From IMG/VR virus record IMGVR_UViG_2912838376_000002, positions 160,001 to 224,000 of that record: 64,000 nucleotides of DNA; one strand, given 5' to 3'. Numbering within the stretch: position 1 is the stretch's first letter; every line of letters begins with the position of its first letter. Under the pieces are notes generated by a model, which made no database searches, had not been told where the DNA came from, and saw only the letters and a list, made by a program, of their open reading frames with translations. The stretch is from a virus (lineage: Duplodnaviria > Caudoviricetes). Positions 11,090 through 29,623 of the stretch are shown piece after piece. The position numbers were made by a program, and so were the translations under genes.

Positions 11090-11814
11090 TGTTTTTTAGA
11101 GAAGAACGTAGATATCTTCTTGAAGAAACCGGGTTTTTGTTTGTTACCCATCATAAAGCGGTTTTCATGTTCTTCCAACAGAGAAAGTTGTTCTTTTAAT
11201 TCATTAATATCTTCAGGGGTTTTAATCGTCATAGAAATATTTTTACCCTTAGAAGCTTGTACTTTGTTAACCATCTTATCTAGCGTAAGGTCACAATATT
11301 CATCTTCCCAATCGCCGATGAAATAGAAGCGGTCAATAACCGTTCTACTTTTTTCATCTTGAAATGTTCCGAAGAGGATAGGGTCCTTATCGCGGCGTTC
11401 CTTCGTTACTTGTTTTTCAACTTTACCTGTATAATCCGTGAACACAACATAGAACTGATCGAACTTATCTTTAATAGTTTCTAGAACAGCAACAACATCA
11501 TCAGGTATTTCTCGTTCGTAACTTTCAAGATCCTGAATCTTAACTGTATCTTTAGAAATGTTCTCGATAAATTCTTCGATGTCATCACGGTAAACAAATG
11601 TATCGATACCAGCCTGCACAATGCTACGTTCTTTTTCAATTGTTTCTAAATGAAAGATTAATTTCTTAATAGCTTTAGTTTGGCCAGTGATTTTGTACTT
11701 ATTCAAAAGGGTAAGACAGTTATCATAGATGTTTACGAGTTCTTGATCATCTATCGTATTCTTTTTACCTTTTATAATTTCAAAGTATTCGCTTGGCGTT
11801 AGTTCTTGATTCAT
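11086..11814 (-). CDS. Hypothetical phage protein
   Basis: 242-aa ORF translationally coupled (ATGA overlap) to the CCA-type gene. Confidence 0.75.
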   Translation of the reverse strand: MNQELTPSEYFEIIKGKKNTIDDQELVNIYDNCLTLLNKYKITGQTKAIKKLIFHLETIEKERSIVQAGIDTFVYRDDIEEFIENISKDTVKIQDLESYEREIPDDVVAVLETIKDKFDQFYVVFTDYTGKVEKQVTKERRDKDPILFGTFQDEKSRTVIDRFYFIGDWEDEYCDLTLDKMVNKVQASKGKNISMTIKTPEDINELKEQLSLLEEHENRFMMGNKQKPGFFKKISTFFSKKH

Positions 11815-13343
11815 ACCATTTTCCCCACATAGTTAGACATTTGCTCACGAGCATTCTTCATAATGACTGTGCGCTGTGCACGTTTATCTTTATGAATCAT
11901 TAAACCTAACTTTTCACCTTTGTATGTTTTCTTTAGTTCTTCAATATCAAGAAGGCAGGCGATATCCTTTGCATTCTCTACATACATATCCATGATACGC
12001 TTATGTTTGATAGCGATAATTAAATCAACAGTCAGTTTCTTAGCTGATTCATAACTACCGGTAATGAACAATAACTTTCTAATCAGTTCATCAAAGTTGA
12101 GTGTACCTTCAGTGTTAAATACGCGTAACATATAAGATACAACTTTTAGAACAGCAGGTAATAGCTCCGGGTTACGGATTCGACCAACTGTATCAGCAAT
12201 ACATACGGTAATGTAATCTTGAGCCCAACCGACACTCGGAAGAAGACCTGGTTTTCTTATGTAATCACTACCACTGTATTCAAATTTACCTTCCATAAAA
12301 TCAACAGCTTTACCATTCTTCATTGCAGTGAATGCGTCGTGGAAAACCATGTGGTTAGCTACATTGAATAAGATAGCCTTCTTATAAGATTTTAAATTAA
12401 AGCGGTCAAGAAATTGTTCTGCAATTGGAACACCTTCTGCTTCATGTGCAATATAAGTAGGAGTACCTTTAACAGGGTGAATACCTTTTGTTACATATTT
12501 ACCAACATCATGAAGTAAGGCAGAGAACATAACTACTAGTTCACTATTAACAGGTAATTCATCTGCAAGATAACGAGCAGAATCAATAACTTGCATAGTA
12601 TGTTCAAATACATTTCCTTCTGGGTGGTACATTAAGTTCTGTTCAAGTTCTGATAAGCAATCAATCTCAGGGAAATGAACATCTAATACATTTGCAGATT
12701 TTAATGCATGGAAGAAGCGGGAAGGGGTACGAGCCATGAATGCTTTCTTCGTTTCTTCTAATACACGTTCAATAGGTAGTGATAACAACTCTGTTTTAAG
12801 TTGATTCATCATCGTCGATGTTTTGTATTCAATAAAGAAACCATATTCTGCAGCAAATCTTGCCGCGCGATACACTCGAAGCGGATCTTCGCAAAAAGCT
12901 TCAGTAGTTGCACGGATTGTTTCAGTTCTTAAGTCAAGTTCACCATAGAACGGATCAATTAATTTATTTGTTTCTAGGTCGATAGCCATTGAATTAATAG
13001 TAATATCTCGGCGGGCTAAATCATCCTCAATAGTGATATCTGGTGATGCATAGATAACAAAACCATTATGACCTTCAGATACTTTTCGTTCTTTTCTAGC
13101 TAATGCTACTTCACAAAGTTCTCCATCAATATCCATACGATAAACAGGGAAGTCTTTACCTTGTAACATAGCAGTAGGGAAGAGACCCTCGAATCCTTCT
13201 TGTGATATACCAGTCACACAATAATCTTTATCTTTTGGTTCTATGTCTAATAGTAAGTCACGAACAGCTCCACCTACTAAATAAACCTTTGCATTGCATG
13301 TTTTTAATGTTTCTACGATTTTAGTTAATTCCACAAAGTTCAC
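11811..13343 (-). CDS. cca: CCA-adding-type tRNA nucleotidyltransferase with HD phosphohydrolase domain
   Basis: VYLVGGAVRD..DKD, EDDLARRDITINSMA, EDPLRVYRAARFAA, HPEGNVFEH and LLHDVGK motifs. Confidence 0.88.
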   Translation of the reverse strand: MNFVELTKIVETLKTCNAKVYLVGGAVRDLLLDIEPKDKDYCVTGISQEGFEGLFPTAMLQGKDFPVYRMDIDGELCEVALARKERKVSEGHNGFVIYASPDITIEDDLARRDITINSMAIDLETNKLIDPFYGELDLRTETIRATTEAFCEDPLRVYRAARFAAEYGFFIEYKTSTMMNQLKTELLSLPIERVLEETKKAFMARTPSRFFHALKSANVLDVHFPEIDCLSELEQNLMYHPEGNVFEHTMQVIDSARYLADELPVNSELVVMFSALLHDVGKYVTKGIHPVKGTPTYIAHEAEGVPIAEQFLDRFNLKSYKKAILFNVANHMVFHDAFTAMKNGKAVDFMEGKFEYSGSDYIRKPGLLPSVGWAQDYITVCIADTVGRIRNPELLPAVLKVVSYMLRVFNTEGTLNFDELIRKLLFITGSYESAKKLTVDLIIAIKHKRIMDMYVENAKDIACLLDIEELKKTYKGEKLGLMIHKDKRAQRTVIMKNAREQMSNYVGKMV

Positions 13344-16918: not shown

Positions 16919-17045
16919 ATTCTTGTACACTCCTAAACTTTTTTATGAAATCGACCGAAAAACACCGAAATGATATATATTATATAGTGGGCGGGAAAAT
17001 TCCCCGGAAACAAATCTACTGCTTCTTCTCTCTATATATAACCCA

Positions 17046-17356
17046 CTATATAGACTCATATATACATACCTATATAGACATAACACTATGACATAACGAC
17101 TATATAGAACTACACATCTACTACTATATAGAGACCTAATACTAATAGATAGATTGCTACTATATATAGATGCCATCGATTTGGTTCCATTCAATAACCT
17201 CCAAACCCTTGATACGACTGTGTTTGTACTTTTCTATATATGACAAACACTTAGACTATTACCCTATGATTATGTGTATCTACTATATAGGCATTCTCTT
17301 TATCTACTGCTATATAGACAGAGACACACACCACTATATAGACGTCTACTATATAG
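17046..17356. repeat. Array of the palindrome CTATATAG in a non-coding segment
   Basis: Exact copies at 17046, 17070, 17100, 17124, 17283, 17310, 17334 and 17349; variant CTATATATAG at 17160. Confidence 0.85.
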
Positions 17357-17481
17357 GGAGAATCACATACTTTATGTTTATGTACAGGTAGGAGAGGGGA
17401 TAGACCACCACTAAAACCTATGGCATTCAGAAGGCTTAGAAGGGGCGGAGACCCGCTTCACCCCCATCGAGAGGTGGTGTT

Positions 17482-17754
17482 TCAGCCTATTTTGAAAAAG
17501 CCCCCTGTAGGGAATTTATACGTAGTTTGTTTGTCTACTATATAGGTAACGAAGGCATTGACTGCGCCGACTGCTAGTTGCCATTCTTCGACCATCTTTT
17601 TTGCACGACGGTATGCGACGTCTTTCGGATTGTTGACCCAGTTGATGACACGTCGTTCTTTGCGAGTGACGGTACCGTCTATATCTATATAGATGACTTC
17701 ATACTTGGTGAAGGCCCAAGTGCGTTCGTAAATGTTGACGATAAATGTTGGCAT
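17482..17754 (-). CDS. Hypothetical protein
   Basis: 90-aa ORF with AAGGAGAGATT RBS. Confidence 0.7.
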   Translation of the reverse strand: MPTFIVNIYERTWAFTKYEVIYIDIDGTVTRKERRVINWVNNPKDVAYRRAKKMVEEWQLAVGAVNAFVTYIVDKQTTYKFPTGGFFKIG

Positions 17755-17782
17755 AATAGTAATCTCTCCTTAGTGAATAAAA

Positions 17783-18082
17783 TTAGATACATGCAGGGAT
17801 CAGTTTGTCTGCATAGAAAACGGGTGTCGGTAGTTCTTCCTTCGACAACCAAGCGAGTGAGTTTCCTGTTTCGATTAATTCTTCCGGTACGAATAGTTCT
17901 AGGTATGGACTGTTTAAGTTGACGACTGCATCCATTTCGATGTCACCTTCGATGACGAAAGCTAAGTATTTCTTTGTATAGTGATTTAGTCCGACTACAA
18001 CGACATCGTTCATGTTTGATGTCATTGCATAAGCTGCTGAGTGAGCAGGGGTAAACCCTGGATTAAGCGGTGGATTCTTCAT
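17783..18082 (-). CDS. Hypothetical protein
   Basis: 99-aa ORF with AGGAGG RBS. Confidence 0.7.
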   Translation of the reverse strand: MKNPPLNPGFTPAHSAAYAMTSNMNDVVVVGLNHYTKKYLAFVIEGDIEMDAVVNLNSPYLELFVPEELIETGNSLAWLSKEELPTPVFYADKLIPACI

Positions 18083-18135
18083 GTGTATTTCCTCCTATAT
18101 AGTAAGTATCAGAGTCTGGGGCTAACGCCCCAACG

Positions 18136-18348
18136 CTACTTATATAGCTCATGACTATATAGAGCGGGATCCATGTAACCAAGGCGTTCGAGTTTTTCAT
18201 AGGATGCCGCAGCTTCAGCATGTGAAGAGTAGCGATGAGATATGTGTTTGAATGTCATCCAAGTATCAGAGTGATAGAACTGTAGTCCTATATAGTAGGA
18301 GCTGTCATCTACTTTGATAATGGATAGTCTCGTTGAAAAGTGTTTCAC
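18136..18348 (-). CDS. Hypothetical protein
   Basis: 70-aa ORF with GAGGA RBS. Confidence 0.55.
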   Translation of the reverse strand: MKHFSTRLSIIKVDDSSYYIGLQFYHSDTWMTFKHISHRYSSHAEAAASYEKLERLGYMDPALYSHELYK

Positions 18349-18460
18349 GTAATCCTCTTTCCGCGTTTGTTATTGTTCCGGTTTAAATAGACGACTAAAC
18401 CTAACCATCTCGTTAGGCAATGTCTAGACTTGTAATACAGTCGTGGATGTGATATAGGAC

Positions 18461-18535
18461 ATGGACGTCGTTAGTTCTACATTTGACTAAGGGGAGATAG
18501 TCAAAATCAAAATGGACGTCGGTAGTCCTATATTT
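18461..18535. repeat. Two 24-bp direct repeats flanking a hairpin
   Basis: ATGGACGTCGTTAGTTCTACATTT and ATGGACGTCGGTAGTCCTATATTT (21/24 identical) around TTTGACTA-AGGGGAGA-TAGTCAAA. Confidence 0.75.
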
Positions 18536-18562
18536 AAAAAAGGGGAGGGGAGTGATCCCCTC

Positions 18563-19075
18563 TTATAGTTGTGGTGCAGGTTGTACCACTGTTTGTTGTG
18601 GTTGTTGCATAGCCATCATAAATTGAGTCATCTGTTGCATCATTTGCTCCATGTTCTTCTCAAGAGCTTCAATACGAGAGTTGTCCTCTAAAGGAATCTC
18701 TACAGTAGTTGGTTGAGGTGGAACTAAAAAAGACGACACCTGTTGAGGAGTCATCCCTTGTTGTGGTTGCATAGGATTCTGTACCATTGGTTGCATACCA
18801 GGCATAGGCATGAACATGTTCGGTGCAGGTTCCGAAACAAACATATCTTTAATCTTAGAAACAATAGAACCACTGTTTCCTTGATAATGACGTTTCACTA
18901 AGTTCGCCATTTGACGTTGTTGTTCAGCTTGCAGGATACCATTAACATGTGCCATCTGAGCTTGTTGCATTAACTGGTTATAGTCGATACCTTTCTCTGC
19001 ACATAGTAATTGAGTCATCATATTGTTAGCTGCACCCTGTACGTCTGATTGAAATTGTCCATATAAGTTATTCAT
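18563..19075 (-). CDS. Q/M/P-rich low-complexity protein
   Basis: Amino-acid composition; short C-terminal coiled coil. Confidence 0.75.
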   Translation of the reverse strand: MNNLYGQFQSDVQGAANNMMTQLLCAEKGIDYNQLMQQAQMAHVNGILQAEQQRQMANLVKRHYQGNSGSIVSKIKDMFVSEPAPNMFMPMPGMQPMVQNPMQPQQGMTPQQVSSFLVPPQPTTVEIPLEDNSRIEALEKNMEQMMQQMTQFMMAMQQPQQTVVQPAPQL

Positions 19076-19127
19076 GATTAAATCTCCCCGTTCTAGTTAT
19101 TGTTAATACACAAAATGGGAGTAGGCG

Positions 19128-19643
19128 TTAGCCTACCCAAACAAAATCCTCGGTATCATTGCTGATTTGAGAAACCTTACCTTCATTGATATAGTCATTC
19201 AGGTTATCTACTTCAATTAAAATGTGTTCAATCTCATCCACTGTACGGAAAGACAACGCACCTTGATTGGCATTGTTCTTTAATACTTGGATAGCATATT
19301 CTGCTTTCTCACGATAAGATGTCCCGACTGGGGCAAAAGCATATATAGATTGACCATTGAAAATAATATCAGTCGGCTGTACAGGTTTACCTACGTGGTT
19401 ATACAACTTGACCGTAACGTTATCAACTGCAAGTTCACCTATGTTGAACGTCTTAATCTTTAAGTCATCAGCATATAGAATACCTTCTACTTGATTAACT
19501 CGTTCAAACTTAGATTCAACTTCTTTCTTTGTTGTACGAACAGTAGTATCACAAGCAGATTTAGCACCTATGATACAAATACGAATAAATAAAGCCAATG
19601 TTAATAACATCCCAACAAATAAAACCCAACCGTTACCTTCCAT
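19128..19643 (-). CDS. N-terminally membrane-anchored hypothetical protein
   Basis: Hydrophobic residues 6-26. Its TAA stop lies in the loop of the conserved hairpin at 19121-19136. Confidence 0.7.
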   Translation of the reverse strand: MEGNGWVLFVGMLLTLALFIRICIIGAKSACDTTVRTTKKEVESKFERVNQVEGILYADDLKIKTFNIGELAVDNVTVKLYNHVGKPVQPTDIIFNGQSIYAFAPVGTSYREKAEYAIQVLKNNANQGALSFRTVDEIEHILIEVDNLNDYINEGKVSQISNDTEDFVWVG

Positions 19644-19655
19644 GACGATCTCTCC

Positions 19656-20027
19656 TTAAATTGCAATAGTGTATGTGCCATAAGGATTGGTAGGTTGATC
19701 AGAATCTATAACAGAAACAATACTGATTATGATGTCACCTCCAACTCCTCTTAATGAACCAATGACAGAGATACATAGCTCTTTGTCAATTACGATAAAT
19801 CTCTCATCGTTATGTAAATCTAATATTTCATCAAACGCATTCTGAATCATCATTACGACTGCACTTTCAAATACAACACGGTGCTTACTGCGTTTAATAG
19901 AATGATAGGAATACTCAATCACTGTCGGTATGCCATCAATAGTGATGCAAATATCTTTATTGTTATCAATCTTACTTTCGAACTTTGTATAACCTTCGAA
20001 TAAGGTACTCATGAAATTTGACCTCAT
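19656..20027 (-). CDS. Hypothetical protein, possible RelE/BrnT-like fold
   Basis: YSYHSIKRSKHR resembles the H...R...R helix of DUF4258/BrnT-like proteins, followed by a beta meander. Confidence 0.4.
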   Translation of the reverse strand: MRSNFMSTLFEGYTKFESKIDNNKDICITIDGIPTVIEYSYHSIKRSKHRVVFESAVVMMIQNAFDEILDLHNDERFIVIDKELCISVIGSLRGVGGDIIISIVSVIDSDQPTNPYGTYTIAI

Positions 20028-20063
20028 CTTCCTATTTAATTGTGATAAAAAAAGAAGCAGGGA

Positions 20064-20438
20064 TTAAACCTGCTTCGTTAATGATTCAATATACTTTAAT
20101 ATCTGTGCTTTCAACTCATACTTGAGCTGAACATTCTCGTAGTATTGTACGTTACCCTGTGTTTCAAATGGAGTCTGTCCAGGTGTGACCAGATAAATTG
20201 TCCCTGGATTATTCTTTGATTCTGCAATAGTGACACGAATAGAGCCACTTACTAAATACAGAATGCAATTGCAGACAATACCGTGTGCTCTTTGTAAGTC
20301 GTTTGCAGGATACACCTTAATGTCGTTTAAACCTAATTCTTTGTTGTGTGTTCTTACTGGTACGTTTACTGTGCGGTACCAAACTGATTGTTGGATTTCT
20401 AACATGTTAAAATCTCTCCTTAAAATATATTTAGACAC
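20064..20438 (-). CDS. Paralog of the 21162-21866 core domain, SpoVG/PC4-like ssDNA/RNA-binding candidate (probable start 20405)
   Basis: Shares WYR..N..LG...I...PA...Q..HGI..N..L...GSI and Y.E...L....KAQIL with the 234-aa protein. Confidence 0.55.
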   Translation of the reverse strand: MSKYILRRDFNMLEIQQSVWYRTVNVPVRTHNKELGLNDIKVYPANDLQRAHGIVCNCILYLVSGSIRVTIAESKNNPGTIYLVTPGQTPFETQGNVQYYENVQLKYELKAQILKYIESLTKQV

Positions 20439-20568
20439 AAAAAAGGAAGAGGACGTTAGCCTCTTCGACGTTTACGTTGAGCTATGATATTGTCCGCTAC
20501 AGTTAATCGAATGCAAAGAAGTCTATCCTCTTTTGACATTGCTAACCATTCTCTAGTGTTAATCTTCA

Positions 20569-20859
20569 TTATGATAACTTCCTTTCGTCTACAGGCAAGA
20601 ACCCTATCACTGTAGAGTTCTGCCTGCCGTATTTGGCTATATATTCAAATGTGTGTTCCCGATTGTTGATTGTGCATGTTCCGACTAGTGTATACTCATT
20701 AGGAAGATTGAACTCCTCGATGTTCTTGAACACGACTTTTTCACTGCCACCATCTACGCGTAATACACGTAAGGGCATACTCTTTATATTTTTTTCTTTC
20801 TTTATTTGAAGACCATTCCATACATTGGACATCATGATGCCTTCAAAGCCTTTTTGCAT
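20569..20859 (-). CDS. Hypothetical protein
   Basis: 96-aa ORF coupled to the upstream gene (TAATG). Confidence 0.6.
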   Translation of the reverse strand: MQKGFEGIMMSNVWNGLQIKKEKNIKSMPLRVLRVDGGSEKVVFKNIEEFNLPNEYTLVGTCTINNREHTFEYIAKYGRQNSTVIGFLPVDERKLS

Positions 20860-21092
20860 TAAGCAACACCTCTGACCGCTTTATCTACTTCTGCATAATC
20901 AACCTCCATAAGACCAGCAATCATACGTGATGCTAGAAGACTTGCAGATTTAAGTACCTTCGTTACGCCATTACAGAAATAAGTGATTTCGATAATACCT
21001 TCCTCAATCTTTCTGGCTACTACAGCAACTAAACCTTTTGTTTCTTCTTTTGCAAGGTAAATAGAATTTTCGTTCGTTGAGATTTCTAACAT
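20859..21092 (-). CDS. Hypothetical protein
   Basis: 77-aa ORF with AGGTGAG RBS. Confidence 0.65.
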   Translation of the reverse strand: MLEISTNENSIYLAKEETKGLVAVVARKIEEGIIEITYFCNGVTKVLKSASLLASRMIAGLMEVDYAEVDKAVRGVA

Positions 21093-21161
21093 GATGGATT
21101 CTCACCTTTCGGATTTAAGTTTTTGTGTAAATAAAAAAGAGAAAAGGGGATGCCTTCTCTC

Positions 21162-21866
21162 TTAGATTGGTAACTCATCTTCTTTAATTTGTGGTTCAAC
21201 TTTATCTCCTGTTTCAACTGGTTGCTCTTCTTGAGCAGGCTGTACAGGTTGTTGTTGCTCCATATTTTGAGGTGCAGGTGGCGTATAAGCAGGAGCTTGT
21301 TGACCAAACTGCGGGAACTGCATTGGTTGCTGTTGCATAGGCATTTGCTGTTGCGGTTGCATACCAAATTGTTGTTGAGGTTGTTGCATTCCGAATTGTT
21401 GCTGTGGCATTTGTTGTTGCATAGGAACTTGTCCTGTCAACATCGCTTCAGCAAAACGAAGAATTTGAGCTTTAACTTGTGGAGTTAAGTTAATGTGCTC
21501 CCAATAGTTCTTCTGTCCTGATTGTGCATCTACTCCATTTTCAGTTGAGATAGTCTGTACGAATGGTGCTTGTGTACGAGGACTCATACGAACTTGGAAT
21601 GAAATACTACCAATAACAGAACGCAATAAACCATTGAACAAGATACCATGTGGCACTTGGTTAGCAGATGCAGGTTTTAATGAGATATTCTCAATACCTA
21701 ACTGCATATTGCTTGGTGCATTCGTTACACCATACAGATAACTACTATTTTGACGATACCAGAACGGGTCAGACTGTTTCTGTTGCTGTTGACCAAATTG
21801 TGGTTGTTGTCCATATTGCGGTTGTGCAAATTGTTGAGTTGTCATAATAAAATCTCTCCATTTCAT
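21162..21866 (-). CDS. Putative single-stranded nucleic-acid-binding protein with Q-rich linkers and acidic LPI tail (probable start 21845)
   Basis: Beta-rich core plus terminal helix, long Q/P/M linker and C-terminus EDELPI resembling the SSB tail DDLPF. Confidence 0.55.
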   Translation of the reverse strand: MKWRDFIMTTQQFAQPQYGQQPQFGQQQQKQSDPFWYRQNSSYLYGVTNAPSNMQLGIENISLKPASANQVPHGILFNGLLRSVIGSISFQVRMSPRTQAPFVQTISTENGVDAQSGQKNYWEHINLTPQVKAQILRFAEAMLTGQVPMQQQMPQQQFGMQQPQQQFGMQPQQQMPMQQQPMQFPQFGQQAPAYTPPAPQNMEQQQPVQPAQEEQPVETGDKVEPQIKEDELPI

Positions 21867-21884
21867 AATTAAAATTTTTAAATC

Positions 21885-22250
21885 AAAAAAGGTAGGGGAG
21901 TTAGCCCCTTAAGTAGTGCACTTAAACTTTTACCTACTCTATATTTAATTAGAGGAATTATTACCTCAAGAAAGGTAAAGGAGTTATCCTTTTGGGTACA
22001 GAACCAAACGCCCAGTTCTATATCCGAACTATTCTTTACATCACTTTCGGATAGGGCGTTAGCCCCTATCCATTACGAGGGCACGTCCAGTTAAAGATTT
22101 CCGCTCTACATTTCATAGGCGGAAGTATAGGCGTTAGCCTGAACGTTAGTGAGGGTGCGTTAGCACCTATACGGTTGACCAATGCGTTAGCAGTGGGCAA
22201 CAGCCCCGGCCGAAGGCCCGGGTAAATCCCGTCCTTATATCTACGTTCTT
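21885..22250 (-). ncRNA. Structured intergenic element with seven GTTA/UAAC-loop hairpins
   Basis: GC-rich non-coding segment between the helicase and SSB-like genes. Loops at 21900, 21983, 22058, 22133, 22145, 22159 and 22186 sit on stems of different sequence. Confidence 0.6.
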
Positions 22251-22303
22251 TATATAAACGCACATATAAAAACAGGAGCAGGGAAGAACCCCACTCCTAT
22301 AAA

Positions 22304-23701
22304 TCATCTTACAATTACTAAGTTTTCTACTGCTCGTGTAACTACAGTGTATAACCATCTGTTAGCATTCTTATATCCATCAACTCCACGATTAAATACT
22401 CCACTTTCATTAATTACATATACAGTCTTCCATTGTGAACCTTGAGATGAATGTCCAGTAATAACATATCCAAATTGAACTTCTACACCTATTGGAATCT
22501 CACGTTTTCCTTGAACTCTAAGCTCCTTGTTCTTCTTACGAATCTCAGAAGCTGTCTTTCTTTCAAACAATACATCCTCGTTTACTTCAATGTAACGATG
22601 CCCATCGAATGCTTCAGGAGTAAACTTGAACTTGATATTTCCATTGTTTAGTTTCTTAATTTCAGATACTGTGCCACGCATACCGTTAGTTACTTGAATT
22701 TCACCATTGTTACCACCATCAATATTCTCTTTGATTACAACAGTTTCACCATCCATAAGAACTGGTTCATTGAAGCCAAGGTGTGAACGAATAGCTTGGT
22801 TTAGACTTTGACGAGTCTTATTCATACCAGCAATCACAACACCACCATTAGCAACTACCTTTGCATATTGGGCAACAGATACTCTACTGCGGTTAACAAC
22901 AAATACTTTCCCACCAATGTTCTGATCTCTGTTAGGGAAGATGTAGGGTGTTCCATTTTCTGTAGCCTGACGAATAGCCATTGATAAAGCAACAATTGGA
23001 TTATCTGCAGCTTGGCGTAATACTTCAGTAAGGATTGCATCTGGATTAACAAAGAAGTACTCTTCATCTTTAACAGGAGGTAACTGACCAGGATCTCCAA
23101 CGATTAATACTTTGCATCCAGCTTTCTTAGCCATAGGAAGAATTTCCTCTGCCATACGTCTACCTGTCATAGAGAACTCATCACCAATGATTAGTCTTAC
23201 ACCGTATAAGTTTTCTGCAGAAGGAACAAAGCGAGTACGTCCATCTTTCATTAACTCAGGTACAAAGAATAGGCGATGTAGAGTAGAACAAGAATATCCA
23301 GGTGTCTTTTCTTTTAATACAAGTGAAGCAGTACCAGTTGGTGCACACATACGAACTTGGTCCGCTCTAATTCCAAGCTCCTCTAATATAAAATCAACAA
23401 CAGTAGATTTACCTACACCAGCGAATCCTGCTAATTCAAACTTTCCATAACCATGAGTAGTAGAGTACCATCTCTTAATCTTGCTAACTACCGATTGTTG
23501 ACTAGGTGTTAATACAATATCTCTTTTCTTCTTGCGTTTATTTGGTTGAACCGGTTCAGTAGTTTGATCTACATTGAATACAGGTTTAGGGCTATCTATA
23601 ATATCTTCTGCTACAGTTACAGCATCAACGGGATTAGTAACTGGCTTTTCCTTCTTTGTGTTTAAGTGTTTAATTAATTGGTTTGTTGTCATAATAGTCA
23701 T
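22304..23701 (-). CDS. SF1B (Dda/RecD-like) helicase
   Basis: GFAGVGKS, APTG, STLHR, DEFSM, GDPGQLPPV, LRQ, ITGHSSQGSQW and LYTVVTRA motifs. Confidence 0.9.
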   Translation of the reverse strand: MTIMTTNQLIKHLNTKKEKPVTNPVDAVTVAEDIIDSPKPVFNVDQTTEPVQPNKRKKKRDIVLTPSQQSVVSKIKRWYSTTHGYGKFELAGFAGVGKSTVVDFILEELGIRADQVRMCAPTGTASLVLKEKTPGYSCSTLHRLFFVPELMKDGRTRFVPSAENLYGVRLIIGDEFSMTGRRMAEEILPMAKKAGCKVLIVGDPGQLPPVKDEEYFFVNPDAILTEVLRQAADNPIVALSMAIRQATENGTPYIFPNRDQNIGGKVFVVNRSRVSVAQYAKVVANGGVVIAGMNKTRQSLNQAIRSHLGFNEPVLMDGETVVIKENIDGGNNGEIQVTNGMRGTVSEIKKLNNGNIKFKFTPEAFDGHRYIEVNEDVLFERKTASEIRKKNKELRVQGKREIPIGVEVQFGYVITGHSSQGSQWKTVYVINESGVFNRGVDGYKNANRWLYTVVTRAVENLVIVR

Positions 23702-23798
23702 ATCGAAATCTCTCCTTATAATTGGCTTTTTAGTTTTAAGTCTTTAATTTTTATCTGTCTATATAAAAGAAAAAGAGCAGGGAAGAATCCCCGCTCTG

Positions 23799-24695
23799 TT
23801 AAATCGGTAGAACGATGTCACCTAAGTCTAGAGTTGCAGCTTCTGGTTGTGTAGGTGGTTCTGGGTATTTAATTTCTGGAATAAGAATTGACTCATCAAA
23901 CATTGATGGTGCTGATACAATAGATTGAACTGGTCGAGCTTGTTTCACTTCTTCAACTACCTCTAAAATCTCCGCGTATAATCCAGTAAAAGTAGAGTTA
24001 GGAACATTCTTCTTTAAATGAGTTAATACACGAACAGTGTGACCCATATACTTTTCTAATTCAGCACGAATTGTTTTGTTCTCTCTATTGTCAGCAAGAG
24101 AACCGATAAATTGACCATCTTTATAAACAAGATAAGATGTTGTCATTGTTTCTTCATTTACCTCAACTTTTACATCCATAACACCTTCATCAACAGCTGC
24201 TTCTTTCATGTTCATGATTCCACACTCTTGTGCAATGTGAGACGCCTTTAAATCACAAGAAGATGCGAATGGACATCCTTTACATGGCTTATCAATACGA
24301 ACATATAAGTCATACTGTTTGTTACCAAGTACATATTCTTGTGGTGCAGGATCTTCTACGATATCTTCCACTACTGGTTGTGGAGGAATGAATGGTGCTG
24401 GCGTTTCATTTGTATGTTGTACAGCTTCCGCCGCTTGTTTCATTAAAGTTGGCATCATAGCATCTATTTGTTGTTGTACTAATGTATTAACATCTACAGA
24501 CTGTTCTTGTTGAACAGGTGTAGTATTTGATTGTTGCATCCAAGTTAAGCCTTGTTGTAAAGCTTGTGTTTGTTGATTAAGAGCCTGTGCTTGTTGGCTT
24601 AATGTGTTCATATACATTGCAAAGATTTCGTTGTTATTCATATTCATTTCTCTCCCTTTATCTGATAAAATAAAAGGGTAGCGGATTAACTCCAC
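23799..24695 (-). CDS. Q-rich protein with Cys cluster and possible HIRAN-like domain (probable start about 24647)
   Basis: N-terminal Q-rich helix, CKGCPFASSC...C cluster, VYKDGQFIGSL (HIRAN-like V....IG), tail GDIVLPI. Confidence 0.5.
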   Translation of the reverse strand: MELIRYPFILSDKGREMNMNNNEIFAMYMNTLSQQAQALNQQTQALQQGLTWMQQSNTTPVQQEQSVDVNTLVQQQIDAMMPTLMKQAAEAVQHTNETPAPFIPPQPVVEDIVEDPAPQEYVLGNKQYDLYVRIDKPCKGCPFASSCDLKASHIAQECGIMNMKEAAVDEGVMDVKVEVNEETMTTSYLVYKDGQFIGSLADNRENKTIRAELEKYMGHTVRVLTHLKKNVPNSTFTGLYAEILEVVEEVKQARPVQSIVSAPSMFDESILIPEIKYPEPPTQPEAATLDLGDIVLPI

Positions 24696-24718
24696 TACCC
24701 AAATGATTGTTTTAATTA

Positions 24719-27700
24719 TTAGAAGCGAACGATTGCAGTCGTTCCTTCTTCGCCAAATGCGATTTCTGTAACAGGGATTTCGTAGATACCAGCCATGCTG
24801 AAGTTTGTTGGAGCAAACCCCATGTATGCTGCATCTTCACGAGTAACTGTCATAGCGTCAGTAACTTGTGCATCTTTGTTTAAGAAGTACATTACAAGGC
24901 GAACAGAGTCTTGCTGTTGTTCTGGTTTAATCGCAACTCGCACGTTACGGTTAACAGAAACAGTTTTATTCGCTACTTTTGCAACCGGGTTCATAACACG
25001 AACTTTCACTTGGTTAGAAACTGCAGTTGGAGCTGCAACTTTCTCAACTAAGCTAGATTGTAAAAGAGTGAATGTAATATCTTGTGGAACGAAATAAGTC
25101 TCAGAAACTCGGCCAGAGATTAAAGAGTTCATTTCTTCCGCAAATACTTCGAATGGTAAAGCAATGAATCCGTTAGATGCTACGAAACGATATTCGCGGC
25201 CATCTTTACGGTAAGCAGCTTTACCATTTGTTTTTGCTTCATTAACTAATAGGTATAGAGCACCAACTAATTGACGAACATCTAAACCTAATTCTTTTGC
25301 AGTTGCATACATTTCTTTACGAAGTTCTGCTTTGTATAGGTCACGAGCCATTTTGTATTGAGATAATGTAGCATCGTAGTTAGCACGGATCTTAGCAGTC
25401 TTCTTCGCTTTAGTTAGAGATTGCATGTTTTTCTTACGGAATACACCAGCTTCTTTAAGCTCAGCTTCAGCTTGCATCATGAAGTCTTTCTCAGCAGCCG
25501 CGCGAACATTCTCTTTTTGAGTGTAAGCATTGTATAGGTTAGCAACATAGTACTTCACTGCATCAATTGATTGTGGAGCAACTTCCATGTGTGTAGCAAT
25601 ACGAGTACGAATCTCATTCTTAGCAGTATTGCTGTGACCTGTTTGGAACTTCTCACATAATGCTACGATAGCTTCTTCTGCATAGTTGAATACAAACTCA
25701 TAAGCGCTATCATTGTTAACTACACCAAACTCATCTTTCTGAGAAGCTAACCATTGTGGCTTCTTAACTTCGAAACCAGTGATTACAGCTTGACCAGACA
25801 TTTTATCTTGACGTACAATTGGGCTGAAGATGTGAGCGTAAATACCTTTTTCTTCAGCAAGTAATGCAAACTTAGCCTCATTTGTTAATTCTAATTCAGC
25901 TTCCTCAAAGAAACGACCTTCGAAGTTAGCGAATAGTTTGTTGATAAGAGGCATAGATAGGTAAGCACCACCGTGTTTAGGACGGTCAATTTCCCAACGA
26001 CCAGCAGTACATAAAGCAAGTAAGTCAGCTTCAACTTCCGCACGTTGAGCAGCATTTAATACTGAACGAGAAAGAAGGTCAGTTAAGATCATTGCACGGT
26101 TAGCAATTACACCGATTAAGCTTGCTTCAATTGTATCAACAGTGATTTGTTGAGATAGACCAGCAACTACTTCTAAGAAATCGTGACGGCGAGCAGTACC
26201 ATTCTCACCTTTTAATTCTTCTGGATTGAAGATTACATTGTTACCTTGAACGATAAATCCATTTACTTCTTTAGCTTCTGGTTTAGTTTCTTTAGCTTTA
26301 GCAGCTGCAGTTACATAAGTAGGACAACCTGTACCGAATTCAACAGCAACACCATTCTCGTATTTAACATAAGCATCAACGAATGGAAGTACAGCTTGAT
26401 TACCGTATAATTCAACTTCTTTACGGATACGAGCATTAACCATTAACTCATCAAAGATAATGATTGAAGTATCACCATCATGGTCAGCACCAGCTTGTTG
26501 TGCAACAACCCAAGAGAAAGCATCGAAGAACGTAATACCTTGCCATAAACCTTGTTCAACGAACTCAGCATACTCTGGAGATTGAACAGCAGTTACAACT
26601 GGAATCTCATGAGTAACTGTAACAGGGAAACGAACAGATAATGCTTTACCAGTTTCTAAGAAGAACTTGTCATCTTTCTTAGATGGAGCAACTACTTCAT
26701 AAGCACCTAATACAGCATCTTCTTTAGTTGCAGTGTAACGACCATCTTTCGCAGCATTGTAGATAGCGAATACATCTGTGAACATATAACGAGTACGAGC
26801 TTGAGTAGTGAATAGTTTAGAATCTAATAATTTGTTAAGCTTCTTAACTCCTAAACCAACAATCTCATCTTTAATGTATTGCTCATCAAGAATGTCACCA
26901 AACTCTTGAGCAAGACGTACATAATCAACCGCCGCAAATTCTGTTTCTGCTTCTTCTTCAGCAGCATTAAGCATTGTTAAGATATCAGAAGTCATTTTCT
27001 CTTCGATAGAATTCTTCACGAAATCAACGCTGTTTGTAACACCTTGTTTTAATTCTTCAACAGATAATCCCATTTGTTGTGTAGCTTGAGATGCAACCCA
27101 GATACCGTCGTTACCATCTTTACGTTGTCCAACTACGAATAATTGGAATCCGTTTTCTTGGATGTCAGCTAAGATATCTTCTGATTTCACCATACCATCA
27201 GTTAAGATGATATCAGCATTGAATAATTCACAGATTGGGTTGAACTCGAATGAAGCACCTTTAACTGCGTTAGAGATACGTAATTGGAATGCATCAAAGC
27301 TATTGATTACTCCTGCAGAACGTAAACCTTCAGTAACGCGTCGGTTGTGCCATCCTTGTCCATCTGTAAGGTTACGGAATAGAAGATCTTTAACAGCATC
27401 TTTGTTATCCCAGTTATTGAACTTCTCAACACCTACAAATGCATTGTCTTTATTTAATACGTTTAACATGAAGTCTTGATCCATTGCGATTTGAGCAGTG
27501 AAATCATCAACTAAAGCGATTGTGATTTTCTCACCATCGTTATTTGTTACTACGATGTAAGCTGGTTTAATTTCACCAATTACATTACGAGTTCCAGCAG
27601 GGAAGAACTCAACTGTGTGGTTGTGGCTGAATGTGCTTAGTAAACCTTTATCAGCTTTAAGACCATTAGAACCTGCTAACATGAAACGTTTGTAAGACTT

Positions 27701-28906
27701 AGCAACATCCATTACATTGTATCCAGTTGCTTCACCATTTAATTTGTGCTTTTTACCATAAGCGCGCTCATCTTGACCAGTTCCTAAGAAGTAAGTAATT
27801 ACATCTTCTAGAGTTTTGAAACCAACAGCACCATTAGAACGAGCTTGAGACATTGATTTAGCATATGTTTTGTAAGAGAATGTTTCTTCTTCAGATACAA
27901 CAGAACCAATTTCTAATTGACCATCTTCACGGTGTAATACAGATACCTCAGAGAATACCGCTTTTAATACCGCGCCGTTTACTTCTTCACCAAATGGTAG
28001 AGAAGCAGATCCGTCAAATGTACACATTTCATCAAGAACAACTGCTTTTTGTGGTTCTTCAATACGTAGAGTCATACCATCTTTGCTGTACTCTTTAACA
28101 ACATTGATTGTTTGAGTCTTTTTACCTTTAGCCATTGCGAAACGGTAAGCCGCTAAGCTACCAGACATCTTTTGGAATAGAGAGTTAACATTAGTTAGGT
28201 TGCTTACATTAGTATCCTTAGCAATGTAGAAGCGAACACCATCACGTAGAACTACTTTCTTGTTGTCGTCTTTTCCTACTTGAACCATTACATTCTCCAT
28301 TAATTCTTCTACATCGAAGTCTACTAATTTACCTAGTACTTCACCACTAGATACTACATAGATATCACCCATGTTTAATGCTGCCATTAATACAGTCTCA
28401 CGAGTCTTTTTGCCATGTACTTTAGCCTTAGCAGTAAGACGGCCTTTTAAGTTTAACTTCTCTAATGCTTTGAACTCTGCTGATTCCATGAACTTAGGGA
28501 ATAGGCCAGGCATAACTACCATTAAGTAATCGATTACTTGCTTACCAGTAGCAGAAGAGAACTGGATAGATACTTCAGTACCATCTTCTTTAGTTACTAC
28601 GAATTTGTTACGACGAGCATCTACAGTTAATGCAGTTGCATCAGTACCAATGAATTGTGAGAATAATGGAGCCTTTACACCCATACCGAATAATGCTTTA
28701 GCGATTTGTCCTGAAGCGTTTTGTACTACCTGTAAGTTACCTGCTGTGAATACTACTGTTTTGTTTGTCATTTTAATCTCTCCTTTAGTTGTGTTGTTTA
28801 CAGTTGTGTTAGTGTTGTTAGTCATAGTTGTGTTCTCTCCTTTGATTGTGTTAGTTCCTTGAGTTGTTGTAGCTGTAGTAGTGTTAGTCATGATAATTCC
28901 TTTCAT
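24719..28906 (-). CDS. Single-chain two-barrel polymerase of the eukaryotic RdRP (QDE-1/RDR)/YonO family
   Basis: Ordered motifs SMSQAR, KSYKRFMLAGS, LTDGQG, AFQLRISNAVKG, VRFP, AGADHDGD (DxDGD at 26471-26485), LIGVIAN and IDRPKHG. Confidence 0.88.
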   Translation of the reverse strand: MKGIIMTNTTTATTTQGTNTIKGENTTMTNNTNTTVNNTTKGEIKMTNKTVVFTAGNLQVVQNASGQIAKALFGMGVKAPLFSQFIGTDATALTVDARRNKFVVTKEDGTEVSIQFSSATGKQVIDYLMVVMPGLFPKFMESAEFKALEKLNLKGRLTAKAKVHGKKTRETVLMAALNMGDIYVVSSGEVLGKLVDFDVEELMENVMVQVGKDDNKKVVLRDGVRFYIAKDTNVSNLTNVNSLFQKMSGSLAAYRFAMAKGKKTQTINVVKEYSKDGMTLRIEEPQKAVVLDEMCTFDGSASLPFGEEVNGAVLKAVFSEVSVLHREDGQLEIGSVVSEEETFSYKTYAKSMSQARSNGAVGFKTLEDVITYFLGTGQDERAYGKKHKLNGEATGYNVMDVAKSYKRFMLAGSNGLKADKGLLSTFSHNHTVEFFPAGTRNVIGEIKPAYIVVTNNDGEKITIALVDDFTAQIAMDQDFMLNVLNKDNAFVGVEKFNNWDNKDAVKDLLFRNLTDGQGWHNRRVTEGLRSAGVINSFDAFQLRISNAVKGASFEFNPICELFNADIILTDGMVKSEDILADIQENGFQLFVVGQRKDGNDGIWVASQATQQMGLSVEELKQGVTNSVDFVKNSIEEKMTSDILTMLNAAEEEAETEFAAVDYVRLAQEFGDILDEQYIKDEIVGLGVKKLNKLLDSKLFTTQARTRYMFTDVFAIYNAAKDGRYTATKEDAVLGAYEVVAPSKKDDKFFLETGKALSVRFPVTVTHEIPVVTAVQSPEYAEFVEQGLWQGITFFDAFSWVVAQQAGADHDGDTSIIIFDELMVNARIRKEVELYGNQAVLPFVDAYVKYENGVAVEFGTGCPTYVTAAAKAKETKPEAKEVNGFIVQGNNVIFNPEELKGENGTARRHDFLEVVAGLSQQITVDTIEASLIGVIANRAMILTDLLSRSVLNAAQRAEVEADLLALCTAGRWEIDRPKHGGAYLSMPLINKLFANFEGRFFEEAELELTNEAKFALLAEEKGIYAHIFSPIVRQDKMSGQAVITGFEVKKPQWLASQKDEFGVVNNDSAYEFVFNYAEEAIVALCEKFQTGHSNTAKNEIRTRIATHMEVAPQSIDAVKYYVANLYNAYTQKENVRAAAEKDFMMQAEAELKEAGVFRKKNMQSLTKAKKTAKIRANYDATLSQYKMARDLYKAELRKEMYATAKELGLDVRQLVGALYLLVNEAKTNGKAAYRKDGREYRFVASNGFIALPFEVFAEEMNSLISGRVSETYFVPQDITFTLLQSSLVEKVAAPTAVSNQVKVRVMNPVAKVANKTVSVNRNVRVAIKPEQQQDSVRLVMYFLNKDAQVTDAMTVTREDAAYMGFAPTNFSMAGIYEIPVTEIAFGEEGTTAIVRF

Positions 28907-29052
28907 ATGCTCTCATTTAATTGGTCAGGAGCTAGACCTATATTTGTGGGTCGGTAGTAGGGGGTGGGCATCGAAAGTCCACCAAGTACAACCCATATAT
29001 ACCACCTTGCGCCTCAAAAAATTTAAAAAAATCCAGCCTATATAGGGCAACA

Positions 29053-29298
29053 AGTCAGGAAGAAAGAAGGCGGTTATCCGTAGGGCACAGCCCAACAGCG
29101 GACGACTACCTTCTTTTTATTTGTGCCTACAGTCAGGAATGAGCGAGCCGGTGATGAAGCCAATAGTATTTGATTGAGAAAATGTGACAAATTGGTTAGG
29201 TTATGGCTGAAGTCAGGAAAGGAGGGTGAGGACATGGAAGGACTTATGTATGAACGATTTGAACAAGACCTACTTGATCATTGGGTGAAAAGTCAGGA
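29053..29298 (+). repeat. Phased AGTCAGGA repeats
   Basis: Copies at 29053, 29131, 29211 and 29291 (78/80/80 bp apart); further copy at 29911 and variants at 28923 and 29498. Confidence 0.75.
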
Positions 29299-29491
29299 GT
29301 CAGCAAGGGTGGGACTAAAGACCACTGTTGTATGTCTTCAAATGAACAATGGGTTTGAAGTAGTTGGACAATCAGCATGTGTGAATCCAGATGAGTACGA
29401 CTATGAACTTGGTGTCTATTACGCTACTAAAGACGCGCTTAAAAGAATCGCTGACATTGTAGCTTACCTTGAACATGAAGGTACATTTTAG
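29234..29491 (+). CDS. Gp49/Sf6 gp66-family protein (possible nucleotide-sponge anti-defence protein)
   Basis: TTVVCLQMNNGFEVVGQSACVNPDEYDYELG is the family signature. RBS precedes ATG 29234. Confidence 0.75.
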   Translation: MEGLMYERFEQDLLDHWVKSQESARVGLKTTVVCLQMNNGFEVVGQSACVNPDEYDYELGVYYATKDALKRIADIVAYLEHEGTF

Positions 29492-29623
29492 GCATTAAGT
29501 CAGAAGAGAAGAGCGTGGAAAGTAATCAGTGCTCTTACATGTTTTAATCTTTTCAAAATGAACCGCACTTAAAAACCTCGATATAACATCCACTCAAATA
29601 AAACACATACAGGAGGAATCACA

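Follow-up and report, generated by a model that had tools for sequence, protein, structure and literature searches.

Between a helicase gene and the gene of a 227-amino-acid (227-aa) protein, the leftward early/replication operon of a pBtic235-like Bacillus jumbo plasmid-prophage of about 245 kb contains a conserved, structured and non-coding RNA module of about 400 nt. It is located at about positions 22300 to 21885 on the minus strand of a 64,000-nt stretch of DNA, here called the window, which corresponds to bases 160,001–224,000 of the 244,829-bp virus record IMGVR_UViG_2912838376_000002 (G+C 36%). In this element, six to eight short hairpins keep a UAAC tetraloop while their stems drift, and in all five genomes a GC hairpin with the same UAAC cap forms many of the terminators in this operon block. 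It is very probably a structured element at the level of RNA. The reading that we favor, and hold only tentatively, is that it shows multivalent boxB-like UAAC hairpins to a factor governing termination, read-through or 3'-end/RNA stability in the leftward operon. pBtic235 itself is described as a circular jumbo prophage in passages of PMC9700832, and passages of PMC8026635 also cover it.

An initial annotation of this DNA had described positions 21885–22250 as a multi-hairpin non-coding element with seven GTTA loops, and its interpretation as a whole is partly supported. It missed that the minus strand is the coding strand, that the loop at 21900 is part of a terminator, that the loop recurs on terminators genome-wide and that the element extends to about 22300. 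The genes around the element are on the minus strand, so that it is to be read as the reverse complement and the GTTA loops are UAAC in the sense RNA. All seven loops are where they had been placed. Five of them are solid, namely AAAGGA/TCCTTT (21992–21977), the bulged ATAGGGGC/GCCCTAT (22070–22049), AGGC/GCCT (22140–22129), GGTGC/GCACC (22167–22154) and CCAATGC/GCAGTGG with one mismatch (about 22196–22179). The other two are weaker: the AC/GT stem has just 2 bp, and next to the GGGG/CCCC stem the C and U stay unpaired in the window genome, which leaves a loop of 6 nt. The GGGC-AACA-GCCC and GGCC-GAA-GGCC hairpins are also present.

The clustering of these loops far exceeds expectation. CTAACG occurs five times in 366 nt, compared with 0.06 expected from the genome minus-strand rate, and GCTAACGC occurs four times in the element, compared with 0.02 expected; the element is the sole place in the 244,829-bp genome with at least three CTAACG per 366 nt. 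Stem-closed TAAC loops number six, whereas 2000 mononucleotide shuffles gave 0.23 on average and never more than 3. The G+C content of the element is 0.43, compared with 0.36 for the surroundings and the genome, and the folding z-scores on the two strands are -5.58 and -5.54. The folding energy leaves the sense strand undecided; it is fixed by the G-U pairs of the hairpin H0 (Table 1), since the opposite strand, or DNA, would have A-C mismatches in their place.

The intergenic region was compared in six distinct versions from about four lineages: the window, L001 (identical to L011, from Bacillus thuringiensis israelensis), L005, L009 (identical to L010), L013 and L012. L001 is 92% identical to the window overall. 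The order of helicase gene, element and 227-aa gene is kept in all six, and each version has the terminator-like hairpin T1, the GGCC hairpin, a series of UAAC hairpins and the terminator-like hairpin T2, with the 227-aa gene immediately next. An additional small open reading frame (ORF) stands between the helicase gene and T1 in L012 and L013, and the element still adjoins the 227-aa gene, so the element travels with the downstream gene. No conserved ORF was found in the element across the six homologues. A lack of structural conservation in relatives was among the findings that would speak against the initial annotation, and this conservation is found: the layout is kept in 6/6 and the stems co-vary.

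The consensus calculated by RNAalifold from five sequences, L012 being left out for its insert, has 93 pairs with 93.1% of cells paired. In this consensus, 19 pairs have changes on both sides, compared with a mean of 11.0 +/- 2.1 after shuffling, and none of 500 shuffles reached 19; controls in which the partner was slid by 1–3 columns gave 0–5 such pairs. The best helix is H0, in which 98.9% of cells are paired, 5 pairs are compensatory and several G-U pairs never vary, and T1, conserved in 6/6 homologues, is 92.5% paired. The GGCC/GGCC stem of H1 is invariant in 6/6. The stem of U1 reads UUGC/GCAA, GUUGC/GCAAC or GUUGCC..GGCAAC by lineage, and U2 has the counterparts CCUG-C-GC..GC-U-CAGG in L005 and GAGG-U-GC..GC-CCUC in L013. 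U4 reads AGGC/GCCU, GUGC/GCAC or GCGC/GCGC; its third and fourth pairs co-vary as G-C/U-A/C-G and A-U/G-C. The pair closing the loop of U6 is A-U, U-A or, in L012, C-G. With all this drift, six orthologous hairpins in six sequences have the loop UAAC in 34 of 36 cases, and UGAC in the remaining two. Thus the description as a non-coding multi-hairpin element is borne out by the co-varying stems, the G-U pairs possible only in the sense strand, the terminators at both ends and a ribozyme found in one relative.

This ribozyme is a canonical type III hammerhead (RF00008) on the Cytobacillus plasmid L012 (1708–1766), with a score of 51.3 bits compared with a gathering score of 48.5 and with a complete core (GUC, CUGAUGAG, CGAAAC). 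It starts in the U-tract of T1, that is, in the exact place that H0 occupies in the other five sequences. Neither the window nor L005, L009 or L013 gave a hammerhead match; the window has a plain 19-bp hairpin there. A self-cleaving RNA is meaningful only in a transcript of the element's strand, which implies that the RNA beyond T1 is cut free from the helicase message. The hammerhead in place of H0 points to 5' processing at the RNA level. From its position and shape, H0 is a candidate processing site of the RNase III type, and we infer that it does the hammerhead's job through a host double-strand RNase. Within the element, L012 also has an additional structured insert of about 390 nt (about 2000–2340), which has a terminator of its own and no Rfam match.

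Both T1 and T2 are G+C-rich hairpins followed by a U-tract, as intrinsic terminators are, and the five internal UAAC hairpins have no U-tract. The U-tract of T1 (about 22271–22262) doubles as the 5' arm of H0. T2 has a stem of 5 bp (about -7.6 kcal/mol) and a 3-nt spacer before its U-tract; it is conserved in 6/6, with UGAC in L012, and is 90% identical to another terminator of the genome. We read it as a weak terminator or attenuator that immediately precedes the leader of the next gene. A further AU-rich, imperfect helix may tentatively be drawn across T2, pairing 22099–22091 with 21881–21873 (A5 helix 9); it is 86.7% paired and has 3 pairs changed on both sides, one of which is U-A, G-C or A-U by lineage. 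The initial annotation had proposed a switch in which TATCCGAA and CCCTATCC compete for the same GGATA strand. Both pairings are present: the 3' arm of U5 has an alternative partner at 22028–22023, and this helix (A5 helix 12, 22051–22046 with 22028–22023) is 80% paired with 3 compensatory pairs. The conserved and apparently unpaired motif AACUGGACGUG has the counterparts ACUGAACGUG, which occurs twice, in L012 and AACGGUCGG in L013; no genome site complementary to it, as a target in trans, was found.

The UAAC loop is not confined to the element. No tetraloop hairpin is commoner in the genome than C(UAAC)G. CUAAC is found in 9 of 35 minus-strand terminator-like hairpins (8 of 34 without T2), compared with none of 21 on the plus strand, which is the late one. 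When the element is excluded, only words of tRNA genes and ribosome-binding sites (RBS) are more enriched among intergenic 7-mers than TAGGGGC, GGCTAAC and AACGCCC. In the genome of the window GCTAACGC occurs 15 times in sense and 4 times on the other strand, and in four related genomes GCTRACGC occurs 13–18 times in sense, 2–5 times on the other strand and 0–4 times as a reversed control. Each genome has one UAAC cluster, which is the element, and the remaining copies are scattered, almost all of them downstream along transcription. The leftward block, as seen at 17000–29600 of the minus strand, has a terminator-like hairpin after nearly every gene, 20–70 nt before the next RBS, and its sigma-70-like sites are rarer than chance (20, compared with 37.9 in shuffles). 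Therefore, control by read-through is plausible, and expression of the block must rely either on read-through or on promoters of a kind foreign to the scan.

If one factor reads the UAAC loops, the following sequence of events may be proposed. The primary transcript would pass T1 and then be cleaved at H0; a host double-strand RNase would do this in the present phage, and the ribozyme would do it in Cytobacillus. The RNA, released or as a leader, would then offer many boxB-like UAAC hairpins to one RNA-binding factor, which may be phage- or host-encoded. The bound factor would be loaded onto the transcribing polymerase in cis, like at a nut site, or be titrated in trans, like by a sponge. The outcome would be the amount of transcription past T2 and past the downstream UAAC-capped terminators, or the stability of those 3' ends, and the first gene affected would be that of the 227-aa protein with its tail resembling that of a single-stranded DNA-binding protein (SSB). 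In a far-reaching form, which we regard as unlikely, the element would do in a Gram-positive host what N/nut does in lambda: an array of six to eight hairpins close to the promoter would serve to load a phage factor, or to buffer it, for a leftward operon of about 110–150 kb, some ten to fourteen downstream terminators with the same loop would share one RNA-protein code for gene-by-gene read-through, and the array would be freed by a host RNase site or a hammerhead according to lineage.

These proposals have precedents. UMAC loops have a GNRA-like fold, and the boxB hexaloop of phi21, CUAACC, is bound by the N peptide, as stated in passages of PMC12550061. The array shares with that site a short phage hairpin, UAAC in a GNRA-like (UMAC) loop, and a location in an early operon, ahead of terminators. 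A double-strand RNase site is also found close to the lambda nutL leader. However, nut sites have one hairpin each and here an array has six to eight; the loop here is a tetraloop closed by a Watson-Crick pair, caps terminators too, and belongs to a Gram-positive host. The nut/put-like loading site offered by the initial annotation has thus gained a precedent by resemblance only: the loop of the array shares the core of a known antiterminator-binding hairpin, which does not by itself make the array a nut site. The sponge likewise offered is still in play, but membership in the CsrB family is not. The CsrB/RsmZ RNAs are also non-coding, end in a terminator and carry one loop motif on many short hairpins with varied stems; here, however, the loop is UAAC in all seven hairpins and not GGA, there is no link to CsrA, no promoter of its own was found for the element, and the partner sites scattered elsewhere are hairpins of terminators rather than ribosome-binding sites. 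In the intercistronic C(UUCG)G hairpins of T4, a favored tetraloop is reused between genes and is tied to termination and mRNA stability. The present case differs from them in its loop, its clustered conserved array, its upstream processing site and its confinement to one transcription block.

The protein encoded directly after the array is a further subject of this reading. The core of the 227-aa protein (residues about 49–139) is confidently modelled, and its top structural match in VIA-align is SpoVG (2i9z_A; Z 8.1, 80/87 residues aligned), the next row having Z 5.4. Beyond the core, it has a Q/P/M-rich disordered linker and an acidic tip, EDELPI/EDDLPI, which is kept across 22 family members; we take the linker and tip to resemble bacterial SSB tails. 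No Pfam or PHROG family matched the protein, and a Foldseek search of PDB yielded nothing at E ≤ 0.001. The protein may bind RNA or be a phage SSB without an OB fold, and from its gene position it is, as a putative nucleic-acid-binding protein, an obvious candidate partner of the array. The AU-rich leader between T2 and its RBS presumably recalls the operator by which the T4 gene 32 protein represses its own translation.

Several points weigh against a factor that reads the loops. The SpoVG-like fold of the modelled 227-aa protein is a borderline match. No binding protein or N-like protein was identified; a scan for arginine-rich segments (at least 6 Arg per 18-aa window) gave 7 candidate ORFs. 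The downstream placement of the dispersed hairpins is not significant because just about 7 kb of the block of about 150 kb lies upstream, and three terminators with other loops precede the array. The two UGAC loops show that L012 tolerates a change in the loop. The UAAC loop could stay fixed without any protein because any single change ruins its GNRA-like fold. The count of pairs changed on both sides comes from a consensus structure derived from the same alignment, which represents only about four lineages, related to each other. In RNA libraries from one study, the whole stretch lies inside contigs of 18–21 kb in 4/4 runs, from which no ends, strand or level can be read. The supplements of PMC9700832 give fold changes per annotated gene only, and two protein accessions are not among the entries. 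Among the matches listed in a scan of both sequence collections for triple GCTAACGC, which gives no measure of the general enrichment of UAAC arrays, nearly all are perfect tandem repeats of fixed period and a few are varied-stem C(UAAC)G hairpin arrays with a repeated linker (L183, L217, L210 and L378). Such varied-stem arrays lie between ordinary genes of Paenibacillus and gut Firmicutes and also on an unrelated viral contig, so the loop may be a widely used stable cap. One of the 7 arginine-rich candidates, a 45-aa ORF of the leftward block outside the window (genome 96556–96693, minus strand), has an arginine-rich start with 6 Arg and 9 Arg+Lys in 18 residues; it may be a peptide of the kind that binds boxB-type hairpins in lambdoid phages, or a chance ORF.

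The stable cap is the core of the strongest alternative, which is itself somewhat unlikely: the element would be a passive cassette for processing and stability in cis, in which H0 or the ribozyme parts the helicase message from the mRNA that follows, the stacked hairpins guard the new 5' end as nuclease-resistant caps in the manner of the C(UUCG)G hairpins of T4, T2 attenuates, and no factor reads the loops. No promoter was found in or after the element, so that the downstream gene must come from read-through RNA that contains it, and the element stays with this gene despite the ORFs inserted upstream. The weakness of T2, the possible long-range helix across it and the UAAC arrays between ordinary chromosomal genes elsewhere also fit such a cassette. 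The hammerhead would leave a 5'-OH, and a 5'-OH slows 5'-exonuclease decay in Bacillus. However, a conserved architecture of 350–800 nt with the unpaired motif AACUGGACGUG exceeds the needs of a stabilizer, and the loop is kept despite changes of its closing pair. A generic cap would not predict confinement of the loop to one transcription block. In addition, the default energy model of ViennaRNA gives UAAC no bonus (rank 159/256); Turner 1999 parameters left the output unchanged, and C(UAAC)G may have stood on the older bonus list.

It is less likely still that the element is a stand-alone structured RNA unrelated to termination, such as a scaffold or self-assembling RNA like ROOL and GOLLD or a regulator of plasmid maintenance or of the lysis-lysogeny decision, with UAAC making tertiary contacts. 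The element is discrete, with terminators at both ends, 5' processing, raised G+C, a z-score of -5.6 and co-variation. According to passages of PMC12306022, the UAAC loops of the small-subunit rRNA and of the lariat-capping ribozyme are stabilized by a distant adenosine, that is, by tertiary contacts. ROOL and GOLLD are likewise ornate, phage-borne and hundreds of nt long, but the element is smaller, is built of simple hairpins and matches neither these nor any other Rfam family in sequence or structure. The tight linkage to the downstream gene and the lack of a detectable promoter of its own argue against independence, and the wide variation in size among relatives (about 400 to about 790 nt) argues against one compact fold.

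The two remaining alternatives are very improbable even when taken together. A DNA-level element, such as a replication origin, a single-strand initiation site or protein sites on GCGTTAGC, would suit the position between a helicase gene and an SSB-like gene and the repeated, strand-oriented 8-mer GCGTTAGC, and we give it little credence. The cumulative GC-skew minimum is 6.5 kb off, at genome 188,783, where gene direction switches divergently; the G+C of the element is above the genome mean, whereas an origin would have iterons or an AT-rich unwinding element; the stems co-vary through G-U pairs that are mismatches in DNA or the other strand; a hammerhead fills the 5' part in one relative; the dispersed copies carry U-tracts in the direction of transcription; and palindromic boxes 4 kb away look more like iterons or operators.

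Least credible of all is an array of promoters or of small RNAs of about 75–80 nt, both offered by the initial annotation. In its favor, four units spaced at 83/75/75 nt have in common an ATATAGA-like word and, just before UAC, a UAAC hairpin. Against it, there is no sense-strand sigma-70-like site, TATAGAG and ATATAGA occur 0 and 6 times in other oriented intergenic DNA with neither enriched, the word lies in the 5' arm in two units and in the 3' arm in another, and there are neither internal processing signals nor tRNA-like units. The 83/75/75 spacing is confirmed and is conserved in L013 (74/74/81), but it is lost in L005 (61/73/79) and L012 (62/73). Tandem Repeats Finder found no tandem repeat or CRISPR-type array in 21870–22300, where only hairpin cores of 8–15 nt recur, and the four units align weakly. 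The AT(A/G)TAGA words are present as well, but in the minus-strand reading their structural context differs between units.

The features of the element and the neighboring genes are collected in Table 1, where A1, A3 and A5 denote alignments.

Table 1. Features of the UAAC hairpin element and its neighboring genes in the window, in the order of transcription
Feature	Positions	Strand	Description
Helicase gene	22304–23701	-	465 aa; PHROG Dda-like helicase, E 8e-78; Pfam AAA_30, AAA_19, UvrD_C_2; upstream of the element
T1	22272–22300	-	Terminator-like hairpin (terminator scan); 12 pairs, loop UUCUU; just after the helicase stop; A5 helix 1
H0	22229–22275	-	Hairpin of 19 bp with an invariant G-G mismatch; A5 helix 2
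H1/H1b	22195–22222	-	CCC-G-GGCC-UUC-GGCC-N-GGG and overlapping GGGC-NNNN-GCCC, which compete for the same GGG; A5 helices 3 and 4
U1	22174–22201	-	UAAC hairpin; UGC/GCA, extended by CCA/UGG and GUUG/CAAC
U2	22154–22167	-	GGUGC-UAAC-GCACC
U3	22144–22151	-	Weak AC-UAAC-GU; 2 bp here, 7 bp in L013
U4	22129–22140	-	AGGC-UAAC-GCCU
Variable-region hairpin	22099–22124	-	UUCCGCCUAU-GAAAU-GUAG(A)GCGGAA; minimum free energy (MFE) fold; sequence not conserved
Conserved motif	22082–22092	-	AACUGGACGUG; apparently unpaired; alignments A1 and A3; unique in the genome
U5	22049–22070	-	GGAUAGGG(G)C-UAAC-GCCCUAUCC; A5 helix 11
Hairpin	21997–22022	-	UAUAGAACU-loop-GGUUCUGUA; MFE fold
U6	21977–21992	-	AAAGGA-UAAC-UCCUUU; A5 helix 14
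T2	21885–21909	-	AGGGG-CUAACU-CCCCU, ACC spacer, six U; terminator scan (hairpin 21909–21894)
AU-rich leader	21846–21884	-	GAUUUAAAAAUUUU.., GAUUUAAAAAUUUUAAUUAUGAAAU; between T2 and RBS GGAGAG; apparently unstructured; conserved 6/6 (A3)
227-aa gene	21162–21845	-	Downstream of the element; ATG 21845–21843; RBS GGAGAG
Tail-less paralogue of 227-aa gene	20064–20438	-	31% identity, E 1e-12; 700 nt beyond the 227-aa gene

Relatives of the 227-aa protein number 32 at E ≤ 0.001, several of them on contigs of 220–247 kb labelled Bacillus, Cytobacillus, Gottfriedia or Priestia. Family members from Gottfriedia, Cytobacillus horneckiae, Bacillus subtilis and Priestia were covered as proteins only. In PLSDB the protein was found on a 235-kb B. 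thuringiensis israelensis plasmid, which is pBtic235, and plasmids from Cytobacillus oceanisediminis and B. velezensis carry it too. On pBtic235 the element occupies the intergenic segment 95,449–95,907 of NC_018509. DNA and protein searches of phage records gave no match, a protein-pattern scan of species genomes gave no relative, and further tblastn with distant family members gave no new plasmids. The pattern CGGGCCTTCGGCCNGNGCT, which is too unspecific, matched only unrelated G+C-rich genomes among genome contigs, and two known relatives and unrelated contigs among viral contigs.

Other features of the window touch the element less closely. The terminator after the 298-aa gene (23797–23774, minus strand) and T1 are near-copies (GAG[U/C]GGGG-(A)UUCUU-CCCUGCUC), so that a T1-type terminator is a second recurring terminator module besides the UAAC type. 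ARAGORN found no tRNA or tmRNA gene in the window. A tRNA nucleotidyltransferase gene (PHROG 2244, E 7e-87) is at 11811–13343 on the minus strand, and 18 tRNA genes are clustered outside the window at genome 113,384–116,597, with one UAAC hairpin among them at genome 114,028. At about 17030–18300, at least a dozen palindromic CTATATAG boxes, frequently in the form CTACTATATAGG, are densely clustered on both strands within and beside large intergenic gaps. These boxes look like iterons, operators or a plasmid-prophage partition site and are unrelated to the UAAC hairpins.

The element is a candidate for an RNA family absent from Rfam and from the literature searched. A search of Rfam 15, one of the checks proposed with the initial annotation, gave no family match in the whole window, and 21700–22450 gave only sub-threshold chance rows at E up to 10. 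A term search of the available text of PMC9700832, PMC8116677 and PMC8026635 found no mention of the element, and a search of the literature on UAAC and UMAC/UNAC tetraloops likewise turned up no description of arrays of this kind in phages.

Jumbo plasmid-prophages of the Bacillus cereus group occur in the most widely used mosquito biopesticide strain, and their gene regulation is almost unknown. The element offers a simple and testable code, in which one tetraloop stands both in an array and on terminators, and this code could account for the expression of a long operon in which nearly every gene is followed by a terminator. The ribozyme and the plain hairpin at the same processing position are a natural example in related elements. 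If the loops are only stable caps, the element would be the second case of a phage-wide favorite tetraloop, beside the UUCG of T4.

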